A DNA stretch of 64,000 nucleotides, from positions 128,347 to 192,346 of the forward strand of contig CAWKMQ010000022.1 of the NCBI GenBank assembly GCA_963850725.1. The letters are read 5' to 3'. Under the pieces are notes generated by a model. The model had not been told where the DNA came from. It worked only from the letters and a program-made list of their open reading frames with translations, and ran no database searches. The translations under genes and the position numbers were made by a program. Shown here piece after piece: positions 5,835 to 62,501 of this stretch. How positions within the stretch are numbered: the stretch's first letter is position 1; each line of letters begins with the position of its first letter. This DNA is from Vicinamibacterales bacterium. Its GTDB lineage: Bacteria; Acidobacteriota; Vicinamibacteria; Vicinamibacterales; JAMQPK01.

Positions 5835-7313
5835 CGACCTTGCCCATGGCGTTTCGCGGCAACTGCGACACGCACGCAAGGTTCCTCGGAATTTTGTAAG
5901 GGGCCAGACGCGTTCTGGCCCATTGTTTCAATTCCTCGAGATCGAGTCTCGCGTCCGGCCGCAGTTCGGCCGCGCAGCAGACGCGCTGACCCCACTCCAC
6001 ATCGTCCACGCCCACGACGACGCACTCGGCAATGGCGGGATGCGTGCGCAGCACCTCCTCGATTTCGAGCGCGGAGATCTTGTGTCCGCCGGATTTGAGG
6101 ATGTCGACGCTCGCGCGTCCGAGCAGGCGATACGCGCCGTCCTCGACGACGGCGGCATCGCCGGTGCGAAACCAGCCATCCACAAACGCCTCTCGTGTGG
6201 CGTCGGGCTGCCTCCAGTATTCCGAGAACACCCCCGGCCCTTTGAGCTGCAGCTCGCCGTCAACGATGCGTGCCGATACTCCGGGCAGGGGCTGGCCGAC
6301 ATACCCGGGCCGCCGATCGCCGTGCAGTGGATTCGAAAGCGCCATCCCGACCTCTGTCATGCCATACCGTTCGAGGAGGACGTGCCCGCTGATCTCCTTC
6401 CATCGATCGAGCACGATTCTGGGAAGCGCCGCGGATCCGCTCATCATCAGGCGCAGCGCGTGGCAGCCGCGCGAGCGTGACTCTCGAATATCCGCCGGCG
6501 CGCCGTCCCACGAACCGATCAGCCGGTGATAGACCGTCGGAACCGCGCTGAACAGCGTGAGCTCGCCCGACGAGAGGCGTTCCCACGTCGATTCGCTCTC
6601 GAACCGGGGCGCCATTTCGAGCACCGCGCCGCTCCAGAGCGCGCACGAGACGATGTTGAGGATTCCGTGCACGTGATGCAGGGGAAGGACGAGCAGCGTG
6701 CGATCGGATGCGGTCCATTCCCAGGCGGTCACGAGCGACTCGATCTGCGCGGTGAGATTGGCGTGCGTCGTGACGACGCCTTTCGGACGGCCGGTCGTGC
6801 CGCTGGTGTAGACGATCAAGGCGCGGCGGTTCATTAGGTTCGTTGGGTTCGTAAAGTTCGTAGAGTTCGTAGGGTTCGTCAGGTTCGTGGAGTCGTAGCG
6901 TCAGGTTCGTCGGGTTCGTAAGGTTCGCGCTCGTGTAGAAGCGCGCGCCTGCCGAGCTCGCGAGGGGCTCGATCGCTGCCTGGTTCTCAGCGTCCGCAAC
7001 CACAATGGACGCGTCCGAATCCTGAATCAGGTACGCGAGCTCGGCCGGTGGGTGAGACAGCGGCAGCGGGACGGCGATGCCGCCGGCGAGCCAGATGCCC
7101 CACTGCACGGCCACGTACTCGAATCCCGGCGTGACGAGAAACGCCGACGCGTGCCTCATCGAGATCGCTGCGCCCGTCGAGCAGTCGCGCTGCCACGTCC
7201 GCCGCCGCGGCGCAAAGCTGATCGTATGTGTAGCGTCCGTTGCGATCGAAAATGGCCGTACGAGTCCCATGAGCGCTTGCGCGCGCCACGATGGCAGGCA
7301 CCACGGGAGCCAT
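5773..7313 (-). CDS. AMP-dependent acyl-CoA synthetase/ligase (malonyl- or fatty-acyl-CoA ligase-like), with two apparent frameshifts and an internal 9-nt repeat array
   Basis: ORF 5773..6834 carries IVYTSGTTGRPKG, YGMTE, TGD and KIPR. The N-terminal part is spread over ORFs 6987..7397 and 6260..7270. The ATG at 7313 lies 1 nt after the secretin stop (TAG-C-ATG). Confidence 0.75.
6837..6930. repeat. Tandem 9-nt array with core GGTTCGT (about 9 units), inside the acyl-CoA synthetase CDS
   Basis: Read directly: ggttcgttg ggttcgtaa agttcgtag agttcgtag ggttcgtca ggttcgtgg, then a 13-nt irregular segment, then ggttcgtcg ggttcgtaa ggttcgcgc. The same core forms the left arm of the array at 49482. 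Confidence 0.9.
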
Positions 7314-9867: not shown

Positions 9868-9900
9868 AGGGCTTAGGGCTCAGGGCTTAGGGCTGAGGGG
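9868..9900. repeat. Heptamer tandem array AGGGCT(T/C/G) (minus sense CCCTAAG/CCCTGAG), 4-5 units
   Basis: Plus strand reads agggctt agggctc agggctt agggctg agggg. On the minus strand, stops fall at TAA 9889-9887 (the DUF2723 stop), TGA 9882-9880 and TAA 9875-9873. Confidence 0.85.
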
Positions 9901-23200: not shown

Positions 23201-23300
23201 AATTATAGTCGAAAGTCGCAGGTCGAAAGTCGCTAGTCGCAAGTCCAGTCGCGCCAGTCGATCGACCGTGGCGCACTGCGACTGCGACTTGCGACTACTC
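23201..23300. repeat. Mirrored heptamer array: AGTCG(C/A)A about 8 times (period 7), then TGCGACT 3 times
   Basis: GTCG starts at 23208, 23215, 23222, 23229, 23236, 23248 and 23257. Inverted units begin at 23279, 23285 and 23292. The array lies between the tsf 3' end and the pyrH start. Confidence 0.85.
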
Positions 23301-40408: not shown

Positions 40409-40478
40409 GACTCGGACTCCAGGACTCCAGACTCTTAGGACTCTTGGACTCCAAGACTCCTAGACTCCCAACTCCTCG
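40409..40478. repeat. Tandem roughly 8-nt array with core GACTCC (minus sense GGAGTC), about 8 units
   Basis: ACTC starts at 40410, 40416, 40424, 40431, 40440, 40448, 40456, 40464 and 40471. The array overlaps the last 6 codons and the stop of lapB. Confidence 0.85.
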
Positions 40479-49481: not shown

Positions 49482-49600
49482 GTTCATGGTTCGTGGGTTC
49501 GTCGGTTCGTGGGTTCGCGAGGTTCGGTCGCGAAGCGACGAATCGGCGACGAAACCTGACGAACCTGCGAACTTCACGAACCCGACGAACTCACGAACTT
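49482..49600. repeat. Mirrored oligonucleotide array: GGTTCGT-type units 6 times (period about 8), then ACGAAC-type units 7 times (period about 9)
   Basis: GTTC starts at 49482, 49489, 49497, 49505, 49513 and 49522. CGAA starts at 49540, 49550, 49560, 49568, 49577, 49586 and 49594. The array fills the gap between convergent mdh and sdhB. Confidence 0.9.
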
Positions 49601-52954: not shown

Positions 52955-53052
52955 GTCTTGAATTCTATTCGCAAGCGCCCTGTGCCGACAAACAACGGCG
53001 CGGCGCGTTGGGCGGTGCGAGAAAAGATGATACGATTCACCGTTTCCCGCAT

Positions 53053-54212
<1,160 letters not shown>

Positions 54213-54219
<7 letters not shown>

Positions 54220-54254
54220 CAACTGACGACTGAGAACTGAAGACCACCAACCGA
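54213..54254. repeat. Heptamer tandem array (A/G)ACTGA(A/C/G), 6 units of period 7
   Basis: aactgac aactgac gactgag aactgaa gaccacc aaccgac. TGA falls at 54217 (the sucC stop), 54224, 54231 and 54238. Confidence 0.9.
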
Positions 54255-54257
54255 CAC

Positions 54258-55124
54258 ATGGCGATACTCCTAGACAAGTCCACGCGGTTGATCGTTCAAG
54301 GCCTCACCGGCAAGGAAGGCACCTTTCACGCGAAGCAGGCGGCGGCGTACGGCACGCAGGTCGTCGGCGGCGTCACGCCGGGGAAGGGCGGCACGACCCA
54401 CGAAGGCTGGCCGGTTTTCAACACGGTCGCCGACGCGGTGAAAAGCACGGGCGCCAACACCTCGGTGATCTTCGTACCGGCAGCGTTTGCGGCCGACGCG
54501 GTCATGGAGGCGGCTGACGCCGGCCTGCGCCTCGTCGTGTGCATCACCGAAGGCATTCCTACACTCGACATGATGCGCACGTTCACCTACCTCAGAGAAA
54601 AGCCGACGCGCGTCGTCGGACCGAACTGTCCGGGGGCGATTTCGCCGGGCAAGGCGAAAGCCGGCATCATCCCCGGCCACATCTGCCGCGAAGGGCGCGT
54701 CGGTATCGTGTCGAAGAGCGGCACCCTCACTTATGAAGCCATTCACCAGCTCAGCCAGCTCGGCATGGGTCAGTCATCGTGCATCGGCATCGGCGGCGAC
54801 CCGCTCATCGGCACCTCGTTCGTGGATGTGCTGAAGCTGTTTCAGGACGATCCCGAAACCGACGCCGTGGTGATGATTGGCGAGATCGGCGGCACGGCCG
54901 AAGAGGAAGCCGCGCAATACATCAAGAAGTCCTTCAAGAAGCCGGTGGTGGGCTTCATCGCGGGTCAGACGGCGCCTCCCGGGCGCCGCATGGGGCATGC
55001 CGGGGCGATCATCGCCGGCGGCAAGGGCACCGCGAACGAGAAGATGGCGGCTCTGACGGCGGCCGGCGTGACGGTGGTGAAGAGCCCGGCAGACATCGGA
55101 ACTGCTGTAAAGAGCCTGCTGTAA
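54258..55124 (+). CDS. sucD: Succinyl-CoA synthetase alpha subunit
   Basis: Intact ORF with [31 protein letters not shown] and MGHAGAI. Confidence 0.92.
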
Positions 55125-57173: not shown

Positions 57174-58202
57174 ATGGCGACTCCAATAAAGGTGAATCGA
57201 ATCGGCCTGGAACCGCAGATCTACAAGGGCGGCAAGACGACGCTGTGCGCCGGGTGCGGGCACAACGCGATTTCAGAGCGCATCATCGAGGCGTTTTATG
57301 AGATGGGCGTCGATCCCAAACAGGTAATCAAGCTGTCGGGCATCGGCTGCTCCAGCAAGAGCCCCGCCTATTTTCTGGGCGGCTCTCACGGGTTCAACGC
57401 GGTGCACGGCCGGATGCCGTCGGTGGGCACGGGCGCGATGCTGGCGAACCAGAAGCTCATCGCCATCGGCGTCAGCGGCGACGGCGACACCGGCGCCATC
57501 GGCATCGGTCAGTTCGTCCACCTGATGCGGCGCAATCTGCCCATCATCTACATCATCGAAGACAACGGCTGCTACGGCCTCACGAAGGGGCAGTTCTCGC
57601 CGACGGCCGACGTCGGGTCGAAGCTGAAAAACGGGGTGGTCAACGACCTGCAGCCGATCGACACGTGCGCGCTGGCCGTCCAGCTCGGGGCGACGTTCGT
57701 GGCGCGGTCGTTTTCGGGCGACAAGAAGCAGCTGCTCGCGCTGCTGAAGGCGGCGCTCAGTCACCGTGGAACGGTGATGCTCGACGTCATCTCGCCGTGC
57801 GTGACCTTCAACGACCACGAAGGGTCGACGAAGAGCTATGCCTACGTGAAGGATCACGACGATCCGCTCGAAGAAGTGAGCTTCGTGCCGTTCTTCGAGG
57901 ACATCTCGGTGGAATACGACCCGGGCACGACCCAGGAAGTGAAGATGCACGACGGATCGCGTCTGTTTCTGAAGAAGCTCGAGGAGTCCTACGATCCGAC
58001 CGACAAGCTCGCGGCCATGCGCGTCCTGCACGAGACGGCGCGCCGCGGCGAATTCGCGACGGGGCTGATCTACATCGAGCCCGATCGCGACGATTTCCTC
58101 CGCCAGCTCAACGTGGTCGACGAGCCGCTGGCCTCATTGCCCCTCGAGCGCACACGCCCGTCCAAGGCCGCGCTCGACGAGATCATGGAATCCTTGCGCT
58201 GA
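57174..58202 (+). CDS. korB: 2-oxoacid:ferredoxin oxidoreductase beta subunit (TPP-binding)
   Basis: Intact ORF with LCAGCGH, GIGCSS, SGDGDTGAIG and NNGCYGLTKGQ-type motifs. Confidence 0.88.
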   Translation: MATPIKVNRIGLEPQIYKGGKTTLCAGCGHNAISERIIEAFYEMGVDPKQVIKLSGIGCSSKSPAYFLGGSHGFNAVHGRMPSVGTGAMLANQKLIAIGVSGDGDTGAIGIGQFVHLMRRNLPIIYIIEDNGCYGLTKGQFSPTADVGSKLKNGVVNDLQPIDTCALAVQLGATFVARSFSGDKKQLLALLKAALSHRGTVMLDVISPCVTFNDHEGSTKSYAYVKDHDDPLEEVSFVPFFEDISVEYDPGTTQEVKMHDGSRLFLKKLEESYDPTDKLAAMRVLHETARRGEFATGLIYIEPDRDDFLRQLNVVDEPLASLPLERTRPSKAALDEIMESLR

Positions 58203-58213
58203 GCTTCGCGGTC

Positions 58214-58285
58214 ATGGCAGATGGCAGAATGGCGGATGGCAAAGGGCCGTCTGCCATGCCATCGTGCCAGTCTGCCATGTGCCCT
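58214..58285. repeat. Mirrored array: ATGGC(A/G)G units 4 times (period 7-8), then TCTGCCAT/GCCAT units
   Basis: ATGGC starts at 58214, 58221, 58229 and 58236. Inverted TCTGCCAT units are at 58250 and 58271. The array lies between convergent korB and the 58296..58499 ORF. Confidence 0.85.
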
Positions 58286-60786: not shown

Positions 60787-61607
60787 ATGGCTGACGAAAC
60801 GAAACCCCCTGCGCCTGGCGCGCCGAACGCACCTGGCTGCACCCGTCGCACCCGGCGCACCCGTCGCACCTAACGCACCTGTCGCACCCGACGCACCCGT
60901 CGCACCCAGTGCGGCTCCGGTTGCGCCAAACCAGCGGCTCCAGCTGCGCACGCCGCACCTGGCGCACCGGCGCACCTGCCGCACCCAAACCGGCCGTGCC
61001 GCCCAAGCCGGCGGCGCCTCCGCCGCCTTCGGTGGATCTGGCCGGCAAAACGACGACGGCAGCGGCCACCGCGGCGAAGGTCAGCTCGCGCGATCCTGAC
61101 GACTCGTCGCCGCTCGTCACGCGGCGCGTGTGGCTGGGTATGGCATGGGGAGCGTTCTCGGCGGCCTCGGCGGCCGCGCTGGCGGCGACCGGCCGCTTCA
61201 TGTTTCCCAACGTCCTCAACGAGCCGCCGCAGCAATTCAAGGTCGGCTTTCCCGCCGACTTCGGTATGGGTGTGGACGAGCGGTTCAAGGAATCGAACGG
61301 CATCTGGATTGTCCGGACGGCCGACGATATCGATCAGCACGCCAGCGGGTTCTACGTCCTGAGCACGACCTGCACTCACCTCGGCTGCACGCCGAACTAT
61401 CTCGCCGCCGAAGGCAAGTTCAAGTGCCCGTGTCACGGCAGCGGATTCCGCACGACGGGCGTCAATTTCGAAGGACCGGCGCCGCGACCGCTCGAGCGCG
61501 TGGGCGTCGCGCTCGCCGAGGATGGTCAGATACAGGTCAACAAGGCGCGCAAATTCCAGCGAGAGCTCGGACAGTGGATCGATCCCGAGTCGTTCCTGCG
61601 AATCTGA
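60787..61607 (+). CDS. Rieske [2Fe-2S] subunit of a cytochrome bc-type complex, with a Pro/Ala-rich repeat N-terminus and at least 2 apparent frameshifts
   Basis: CTHLGC and CPCHGS are in ORF 60909..61607, with a twin-Arg/TM segment TRRVWLGMAWGAFSAASAAALA. The ATG at 60787 opens MADETKPPAPGAPNAP, then the frame is lost at 60838 inside the 9-nt array. Confidence 0.8.
60829..60910. repeat. Tandem 9-nt array GCACCCGTC (9 units), coding for (APx)n
   Basis: GCACC starts at 60829, 60839, 60848, 60857, 60866, 60875, 60884, 60893 and 60902. The single 10-nt spacing, between the first two units, coincides with the reading-frame break. Confidence 0.9.
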
Positions 61608-61649
61608 ACACTGCGAACCGACGACTGAAGACTGACAACTGAAGACTGA
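61601..61649. repeat. Heptamer tandem array (x)ACTGA(x), 7 units of period 7, between the Rieske and cytochrome b genes
   Basis: aatctga acactgc gaaccga cgactga agactga caactga agactga, then tATG. TGA falls at 61605 (the Rieske stop), 61626, 61633, 61640 and 61647. Confidence 0.9.
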
Positions 61650-61650
61650 T

Positions 61651-62484
61651 ATGGCCACAGAGACCAAAACGATAAAACCGCAGGAAAGCGCCGCCACGCG
61701 CTTCTGGAACTGGCTGACCGAAACACAGGTCTGGACCTCGGTGTTCCGCCACGAGCGGCCCGATACCGATCGCAATCGCGTGCTCGTGATGCTGTCGAAC
61801 GTCTTCCTGCATCTGCACCCGGTGCGGATCAGGAAGTCGGGCGTCAAGCTGCGCTACACGTGGTGCATGGGAGGGCTGAGCTTCTTCCTCTTCCTGGTCC
61901 TCACCTTTACCGGCTTGCTGCTGATGTTCTACTACCGGCCGACGCTCGAATACGCCTACAACGACATCGTCGGTCTGCGCGAGCATGTGCCGCTCGGCAT
62001 CATGCGCGAGATGCACCGGTGGGGCGCGCACGCGATGGTCATCACGGTGTGGCTGCACATGTTCCGCGTCTTCATGACCGGGTCGTACAAGCCGCCGCGC
62101 GAGTTCAACTGGAGCATCGGCGTCATCATGCTGGTGCTGACGCTGCTGCTGTCGTTCACCGGCTACCTGCTGCCGTGGGACCAGCTGGCGATCTGGGCCA
62201 TCACGGTCGGCTCGAACATGGCGCGCGCGACACCGTTCCTCGGGCACGAAGGGCCGGGCGCGGCGCTGCTGGCGCTGGGCGACGTCAAGCTGATTCACGC
62301 GGCCGACGATGCGCGGTTCGCGCTGCTGGGCGGCACGTTCGTCGGCGAAGGCGCGCTGCTGCGGTTTTACGTGCTCCACTGCGTCGGGTTGCCACTGGGC
62401 ATTGCCGTGCTGATGGCGGTGCACTTCTGGCGCGTGCGCAAAGACGGCGGCATCTCGCGGGCCACTTTAGGCGGTAGCTGTTAG
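61651..62484 (+). CDS. Cytochrome b (b6-like N-terminal, haem-binding part)
   Basis: Intact ORF with 4 TM helices and conserved His residues ([34 protein letters not shown]). Confidence 0.82.
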
Positions 62485-62501
62485 CCCGTAGCTGGTAGCA
62501 A
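62467..62501. repeat. Heptamer tandem array (G/T)TAGCNN, 5 units of period 7
   Basis: TAG falls at 62468, 62475, 62482 (the cytochrome b stop), 62489 and 62496. The next ATG is at 62506. Confidence 0.88.

Follow-up and report, generated by a model that had tools for sequence, protein, structure and literature searches.

The 38 bases that separate sucC from sucD in this genome are best read as a solo forward (NRACTGA)n arm, one locus of a genome-wide, slippage-prone and patchily distributed family of intergenic heptamer repeats, and we give this reading a probability of roughly 0.6. In this order the family probably takes three forms: cassettes, where a TCAGTYN arm precedes a small PF05635 gene and an NRACTGA arm follows it, hairpins that keep this order of arms but contain no gene, and solo arms. 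The ACTGA family of Acidobacteriota is a variant of the repeats described by MacGregor and thus belongs to a known but unexplained class. As a single locus the sucC-sucD junction is ordinary, and its value is that of a clean, well-dated example of this class of repeats.

The window, i.e., the whole stretch of 64,000 nucleotides that was analysed, is part of contig C22 of a 5.2-Mb assembly (G000; 65% G+C, 43 contigs, 73% complete). Re-reading of the sequence showed that the six-unit array proposed in the earlier note for 54213-54254 has exactly these coordinates in the NRACTGA register (Table 1). The six 7-nt steps are present as described, but the unit strings had been written one base out of phase, and units 5 and 6 are degenerate. 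TGA is indeed found at 54217, 54224, 54231 and 54238, closing all three frames, and the sucD ATG lies where it had been placed. Unit 5 takes the position of the family's usual terminal unit NRACTA(C/T), which reads CGACTAC or CGACTCC in relatives, and such terminal ACTA units recur across the ACTGA-family loci of the genome. No Shine-Dalgarno-like sequence is present between the array and the sucD ATG. The identities suggested for both genes were confirmed by Pfam, and the nearest relatives of SucC come from Vicinamibacteria MAGs of the phylum Acidobacteriota. The long sucC ORF covers 53008..54219, but the SucC proteins of relatives align from residue 16, and the true start is likely the ATG at 53053 (MKIHEYQ...).

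Table 1: Repeat units and genes at the sucC-sucD junction and the second ACTGA-family array of the window.
Feature	Position in window	Strand	Details
sucC (succinyl-CoA synthetase beta subunit)	53053..54219	+	Pfam ATP-grasp_2 6e-76, Ligase_CoA 4.9e-31
Repeat unit 1, AAACTGA	54213-54219	+	perfect NRACTGA, carries the sucC stop TGA 54217-54219
Repeat unit 2, CAACTGA	54220-54226	+	perfect NRACTGA
Repeat unit 3, CGACTGA	54227-54233	+	perfect NRACTGA
Repeat unit 4, GAACTGA	54234-54240	+	perfect NRACTGA, forward orientation towards sucD
Repeat unit 5, AGACCAC	54241-54247	+	degenerate, 3 core mismatches
Repeat unit 6, CAACCGA	54248-54254	+	degenerate, 1 core mismatch
CAC and sucD (succinyl-CoA synthetase alpha subunit)	54255..55124	+	ATG 54258; Pfam CoA_binding 2.1e-30, Ligase_CoA 1.9e-25
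Second ACTGA-family array	61601..61649	+	seven in-register units: three degenerate, then CGACTGA AGACTGA CAACTGA AGACTGA

TRF describes the sucC-sucD array as a period-7 repeat of 3.9 copies. The pattern ACTGA-N2-ACTGA (ACTGANNACTGA) occurs six times in the window compared to 0.07 matches expected, and none of 100 shuffles reaches six. All six matches fall in the sucC-sucD array or at 61622-61649 in the second array, in agreement with the consensus that the two had been said to share. The first unit of this second array holds the stop of a Rieske-domain gene (TGA 61605-61607) and a single base separates its last unit from the ATG of a cytochrome b gene at 61651. Chance or artefact as the source of the sucC-sucD array is ruled out by the shuffles, by the genome-wide count given below and by the presence of the array in independent assemblies and in both DNA and RNA contigs.

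Throughout G000 we found 101 matches of the same pattern in 56 clusters, where about 1.3 are expected from the ACTGA frequency measured in this genome. Together with up to 571 three-unit matches in relatives, this upholds the view that the repeat is a dispersed family and not the product of a one-off slippage event. The genome holds 62 ACTGA arrays of 2-6 units, and heptamers as a whole are abundant in it, with 540 period-7 arrays of at least three copies versus 192 at period 6 and 270 at period 8. These belong to 127 distinct canonical units (at least three copies), of which AATCCCT (68 arrays), AATCTAG (33) and AAAGTAG (29) are the commonest; as written, the commonest families are AGGGATT, CTAGAAN, AAAGTRR and AGATGGC. 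Period-7 arrays occupy 8.8% of the convergent, about 6% of the co-directional and 3.2% of the divergent junctions and are thus somewhat commoner where gene 3' ends meet.

Gene contexts were taken from a codon-model gene finder built for this analysis, and start positions are therefore approximate. By these calls none of the 28 ACTGA arrays with at least three units in G000 lies inside a gene. Nine are co-directional forward, seven co-directional reverse, seven divergent and five convergent. As the arrays span all four contexts, the family is real and dispersed but not tied to junctions of subunit genes, and the idea that it marks same-strand junctions of this kind finds no support. The same census bears on the explanation implied by the earlier note, in which the array serves as a designed three-frame stop cassette or insulator between the subunit genes of one complex. 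Such a cassette would account for the presence of TGA in every frame no more than 21 nt from the sucC stop and for the similar construction of the Rieske/cytochrome b junction, and among stop-asymmetric co-directional period-7 arrays the stop lies on the sense strand in 50 and on the antisense strand in 23. This bias, however, comes only from plus-strand junctions (36:10) and vanishes on the minus strand (14:13), while 81 of the 229 co-directional period-7 arrays have no stop on either strand. Furthermore, reversed ACTGA arrays exist, as do ACTGA arrays in gaps between divergent or convergent genes, and congeners manage with a TAATG overlap at the same junction. Coverage of all frames is automatic, because any unit of 7 bases that contains TGA closes every frame after three copies, and we infer that the three-frame stops are a by-product of the TGA in the 7-nt unit and not a designed property. 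The idea of a stop cassette is thus largely refuted by the context census and we consider it highly improbable.

Several properties of the family go beyond neutral slippage, namely a conserved core with a free spacer, a forward bias at starts and a fixed order of arms. When the units of TRF-defined ACTGA arrays are compared to the consensus of their own array, the two spacer positions mismatch at rates of 0.35 and 0.175 and the five core positions at 0.012-0.088. The 67 perfect-core units carry the spacer dinucleotides AA (19), GA (14), CG (14), CA (9), TG (4), AG (4), TA (2) and GC (1). A same-strand start within 35 nt downstream (0-26 nt found) follows 14 of 22 forward arrays but only 1 of 13 reversed ones. 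Nine of 15 reversed arrays begin 2-10 nt after a same-strand stop, the TAG of which sits in the terminal ...ACTA unit. All ten inverted ACTGA pairs of G000 are ordered TCAGT arm then ACTGA arm, and this order is also found in every pair listed for the relatives G016 and G030. As regards a possible replacement of Shine-Dalgarno sequences by the arrays, with crude starts and an assembly without a 16S gene, about 22% of the start sites show a Shine-Dalgarno-like 4-mer and a GGAG-like motif follows about 5 of the 14 start-proximal ACTGA arrays.

After masking of the repeat cores, no flanks are shared among 46 array loci of G000 except by adjacent CTAGAA arrays and one duplicated locus. Since the array loci are flanked by unique sequence, this genome shows no vehicle for copy-and-paste, and a mobile element of this kind was rejected for G000. 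The duplicated locus (C29:62268 and C5:18962, outside the window) has flanks that are 95-99% identical; the ACTGA array inside it has four units in one copy and two in the other, which is a within-genome case of unit-number change.

To follow the history of the junction we compared the sucD locus in 30 relatives, 18 of them from the same genus (g1; L081-L097, L100). The three closest genomes all keep the array, with four units in G015, five in G009 (all CGACTGA) and six in G004, compared to four in G000. Their SucD proteins are 97-99% identical, their spacer dinucleotides differ and their 3' flank is identical to that of G000; between the four genomes 7.5-13% of the third-codon positions of sucD are different. 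These data show that the array arose in the common ancestor of G000 and its three closest relatives and that it gains and loses whole 7-nt units. The conservation of the array in relatives that the earlier note had raised as a check thus holds for these nearest genomes but not for the other congeners. G001 and G005 have a TAATG stop/start overlap, G002 has a 5-nt spacer, G011 carries GGGGTAA units, and G010, G012 and G018 carry GAGTCGG-type units. Hairpins are found in G014 (TTAGTTG/CAACTAA arms) and in G007, G008 and G013 (184-238 nt, TCAGTC/GACTGA arms). In the remaining families of the order TAATG or plain spacers of 1-44 nt prevail, with G030 (CCCTGAC x3) and G025 (a CAGGCTA hairpin) as exceptions.

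Even sister genomes differ, as G010 has a 40-nt array where G002 has the 5-nt spacer, and G012 has GAGTCGG units where G011 has GGGGTAA. On the sucCD tree of 28 genomes an array must have been gained or lost at least six times, and the state or type of the junction must have changed at least 11 times. Some tandem array is present at this junction in 14 of the 18 congeners, built from at least five unrelated units, compared to the roughly 6% of co-directional junctions occupied in G000, so that sucC-sucD appears as a hot spot. From the states of the relatives, an overlap or a short plain spacer is most likely ancestral and the arrays are derived and short-lived, and the sucC-sucD array is young and unstable. 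A core TCA-cycle operon thus tolerates the swap of its ancestral stop/start overlap for a heptamer array.

Within the preferred reading as a solo arm of a dispersed family, the array would have replaced the bare TAATG overlap or short plain spacer of other lineages and may persist as a harmless or mildly useful linker between sucC and sucD. It would close all reading frames after sucC only incidentally and would provide sucD with an unstructured, A-rich leader lacking a Shine-Dalgarno sequence. In this case sucD might be translated by re-initiation or standby binding instead of the ancestral coupling through an overlap.

Differences in unit number among close strains could also point to a contingency locus, in which slippage switches or tunes the expression of sucD by phase variation. 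In favor of this are the four, five and six units of the close relatives, the unit-step differences in environmental contigs, and the example of Haemophilus influenzae, where phase variation is driven by a heptamer repeat in a 5' UTR (PMC12721329). However, sucCD encodes a core enzyme of the TCA cycle whose subunits are needed 1:1, and steps of 7 nt alter neither ORF, as the array is located between a stop and a start and downstream of any promoter. Metagenome contigs moreover cannot reveal switching within a population, and we regard a contingency locus as very unlikely.

The environmental evidence consists of Logan contigs, in which the spread of copy numbers per population is invisible. Soil and rhizosphere metagenome contigs show the same 4-unit allele with G015- or G004-like variants. 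Metatranscriptome contigs from three studies span the end of sucC, the array and the start of sucD, one with four units and two with an extra 7 nt (GACTGCG or AACTGCG) and G009-like flanks. These contigs from soil RNA libraries fit a co-transcription of sucC and sucD as well as slippage in unit steps, with carry-over of DNA in the libraries being possible. At the G000 junction no RNA structure beyond chance is predicted (MFE z-score 0.10), and structure was therefore rejected as a feature of this junction, hairpins being found only in relatives. The predicted hairpins of G014 (-41.9 kcal/mol, z = -4.3) and G013 (-103.6 kcal/mol, z = -7.6) both start at the stop codon, and that of G014 ends about 5 nt before the AUG.

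The three-unit ACTGA pattern is unevenly spread among relatives. Within the genus it was found 208 times in G004, 183 times in G009, 128 times in G015, 69 times in G016 and 38 times in G000, and not once in eight other congeners, and it is most frequent, with 571 matches, in G030, which belongs to a different family within the order. Of the Acidobacteriota, sampled evenly across the phylum, 58 of 301 genomes (44 of 187 genera) contain the pattern, in many cases with spacers specific to a lineage (ACTGACC, ACTGACT or ACTGAGG, for example), showing that ACTGA-type heptamers are also common in this phylum, which is one of the main ones in soil. Part of the ACTGA load of G030 is supplied by a dispersed element of about 115 nt, which is present in near-identical copies in both orientations (L111-L118, several contigs). 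In this element a TCAGT arm and an ACTGA arm enclose a 20-nt loop, and there is a small second hairpin (CTACAGCG...CGCTGTAG) in addition. Its appearance is that of a mobile, non-autonomous member of the family; its non-repeat parts are absent from G000.

A protein family that goes along with the repeats is PF05635 (S23p/Avd-like). Genomes of the genus have 3-19 such genes each, whereas only 1 of 14 control genomes has any. In relatives, 24 of 29 PF05635 loci are enclosed by period-7 arrays that lie within about 60-250 nt, mostly as clearly inverted copies of one unit, and 12 of 16 further loci (in G004, G009 and G015) by short-period arrays. In G000 the five intact copies that were located all have such flanking arrays, and their arm units are abundant dispersed families of this genome (three-unit counts AAAGT 120, GGGATT 97 and GGTTCGT 21). 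Two of the cassettes, G016:C206 and G030:C87, have a TCAGT arm before the gene and an ACTGA arm after it. They lie directly behind the TAG of a gene for a macB-like permease, and their PF05635 ORF runs into the ACTGA arm and stops there. At the orthologous locus of G000 (C41:133925-134340, outside the window) a decayed PF05635 ORF likewise follows directly after the permease TAG, with a TCAGC/TCAGT arm on its 5' side and a GCTGA/ACTGA arm on its 3' side, in which the ORF ends.

Intact orthologues of this macB-linked cassette are present in G016, G030, G003, G004, G005, G007 and G009, and their arm units vary. The arms are CCGTTTA in G003, G005 and G009, TCAGC in G004 and CAGCTGC in G007, and in G015 the 3' arm has about eight ACTGA units while the 5' arm is mostly CCGTTTR. 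As the arms differ between genomes, a one-to-one pairing of this orthologue with ACTGA was rejected; G009 has 183 three-unit ACTGA matches but CCGTTTA arms at this cassette. Thus, the association between gene and arrays is strong, but the unit at a given cassette drifts and the abundance of ACTGA tracks no single orthologue. PF05635 resembles Avd, an accessory protein that acts with the reverse transcriptase of diversity-generating retroelements (PMC10053308), and this homology prompted us to consider dispersal by a resident reverse transcriptase. Reverse transcriptase genes (PF00078) are absent from G000, G004, G009 and G015, which makes retro-dispersal unlikely, and the idea was dropped on this ground. 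The sucC-sucD gap itself contains neither a PF05635 ORF nor a second arm, and its solo arm points towards sucD, as the 3' arm of a cassette would.

A different explanation would see in the array a functional RNA element, whose ACUGA cores are candidate periodic sites for an oligomeric protein that sets initiation at the downstream gene, here sucD. Candidate binders would be a PF05635/Avd-like paralogue or, as proposed by MacGregor, S1 or a cold-shock protein. The conserved core and free spacer are in line with this, as are the forward bias at starts (14/22 versus 1/13), which is the same pattern as in the Beggiatoaceae genome BOGUAY, the likeness of PF05635 to Avd, and the array-flanked PF05635 genes whose arm units are dispersed as ACTGA is. 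The core conservation, the orientation bias and the 14 of 18 congeners with an array at sucC-sucD are also not what inert debris would show and count against the preferred reading, as does the lack of a visible copy-and-paste vehicle in G000. On the other hand, in close relatives this junction is filled by unrelated units or lacks a spacer, and a sequence-specific role for sucD is therefore not conserved. The units of the orthologous macB-linked cassettes differ (TCAGT, TCAGC, CAGCTGC, CCGTTTA), the ACTGA-rich G009 has CCGTTTA arms there, and the G000 cassette with GCTGA/ACTGA arms is decayed. We consider a functional RNA element possible but rather unlikely.

It could also be possible, if only as a tentative proposal, that heptamer arrays are the cis partners of PF05635 proteins, with each paralogue encoded between inverted arms and its own unit dispersed over the genome and docked on stops and starts. 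Solo arms like that between sucC and sucD would in this case be putative leaders addressable by a protein, a role that we find equally doubtful at present. If this were true, the arrays and genes would form a repeat-protein system with a REP-RAYT-like logic built on a four-helix-bundle nucleic-acid binder, and they would give a first handle on the TAACTGA and STRR-type heptamers of several phyla. The association with PF05635/Avd-like genes thus offers a testable hypothesis on what reads or spreads the repeats.

The solo arm between sucC and sucD and its dispersed relatives find their closest counterpart in the TAACTGA intergenic direct repeats, which occur in 2-6 tandem copies in marine Beggiatoaceae, some Cyanobacteria and Bacteroidetes (MacGregor 2015, PMC4679880). 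In BOGUAY 147 of 170 TAACTGA sets point towards a start codon, the commonest class ending 1 nt upstream of it; 14 sets overlap the upstream ORF, only one inverted repeat was found among the 170 sets, and no RNA structure was predicted for the direct arrays (PMC4679880). The phylogenetic distribution is patchy and the function unexplained (PMC4679880). Both families share the ACTGA core, the period of 7 nt, the short sets and the nearly always intergenic position with a mostly forward orientation at starts, and details such as an end 1 nt before the start, as seen here at cytochrome b, or a set that supplies the stop of the upstream ORF, as at sucC, recur as well.

They differ in that the first two positions vary here (NR), with exact TAACTGA in only 2 of the 67 perfect-core units and in none of the sucC-sucD array, and in that over 100 further heptamer units are present in the genome beside this family. 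About 20 of the 56 clusters here are inverted pairs of fixed arm order, the host phylum is Acidobacteriota, and the arms also flank PF05635 genes, which are not mentioned in PMC4679880. Strict membership among the TAACTGA repeats thus fails on the exact unit and on the absence of related repeated heptamers, but the behaviour is the same, and the core conservation and start-codon bias seen here reproduce and extend MacGregor's observations.

The STRR heptamers of cyanobacteria are further intergenic heptamer repeats. In Xanthomonas and Nostoc, long simple-sequence repeats and arrays of G-rich heptamers have been described (Mrazek 2007; abstract of Rehm et al. 2015, PMC4692102). They share with our genome the period-7 excess in intergenic DNA, and the commonest unit of G000, AGGGATT, is of the same G-rich type. 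Slippage is their accepted mutational mechanism, in keeping with the whole-unit changes of the sucC-sucD array between close strains. These descriptions, however, deal with DNA structure (G-quadruplex) or mutation, and no core-plus-spacer pattern, start-codon bias or associated gene is reported in them. For the gene-adjacent tandem heptamers of cyanobacteria, Xanthomonas and Beggiatoaceae, neither MacGregor 2015 (PMC4679880) nor the abstract of Rehm et al. 2015 (PMC4692102) gives a mechanism or function. In the literature searched we found no paper that links heptamer repeats to Acidobacteria, PF05635 or TIGR02436.

For the cassettes a parallel is given by the intervening sequence of the Coxiella burnetii 23S rRNA, which encodes an S23p/PF05635 protein, is flanked by a stem and is excised by RNase III (PMC4990558). 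Here too inverted repeats forming a stem enclose a small PF05635 gene, and the selfish behaviour with an ORF prone to decay can be compared to the decayed copy at C41:133925-134340. Unlike the intervening sequence, the cassettes sit between protein-coding genes and have stems of tandem heptamers, and sucC-sucD has one arm and no gene. In TRAP/HutP-type RNA sites short conserved cores are bound by a cognate oligomer and the spacers between them are free; the ACTGA arrays show this pattern of cores and spacers, and a cognate binder would be hypothetical.

In REP/REPIN-RAYT systems a gene is flanked by inverted short repeats that are also dispersed intergenically, and paralogues are paired with different repeat families. 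The combination of a gene flanked by inverted repeats and the same repeat dispersed in the genome is found here as well. In contrast to RAYTs, the flanked genes match PF05635 and not a transposase, and the PF05635 four-helix bundle is not known to act as a nuclease or transposase. The repeats here are also tandem arrays that change by slippage, and copy-and-paste of a larger unit is not seen in G000, although G030 has its dispersed element of about 115 nt.

Besides the ACTGA arrays, tandem repeats of 7-9 nt are dense throughout the window. In the same row of genes, a GGTAGCT x3.9 array (62473-62499) lies where cytochrome b meets the gene that follows it, and an ATGGCAG x3.9 array (58214-58241) is placed between the ORF that ends at 58202 and the one that starts at 58221. 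Units of the window also serve as arms of PF05635 genes in relatives, with GCTACCA in G001, G007 and G008 and ATGGCAG in G009, and a PF05635 gene at C33:146970 has arms of the GGTTCGT family. Other unit families form hairpins that lack a gene, made up by the inverted pair AGTCGCA x5.6 facing TGCGACT x3 (23207-23296) and by GGTTCGTG x4.8 facing GACGAACC x5.8 (49488-49598). Further arrays are GGTTCGTAA x10.7 (6828-6927), AGGGCTT x4.6 (9868-9899) and GGACTCCA x6.9 (40414-40476). Finally, a 9-nt repeat, GCACCCGTC x7.7 (60839-60907), lies just upstream of the listed GTG start of the Rieske-domain ORF and inside the stop-to-stop frame of this ORF, and may either encode a repetitive N-terminal segment or be a leader array.
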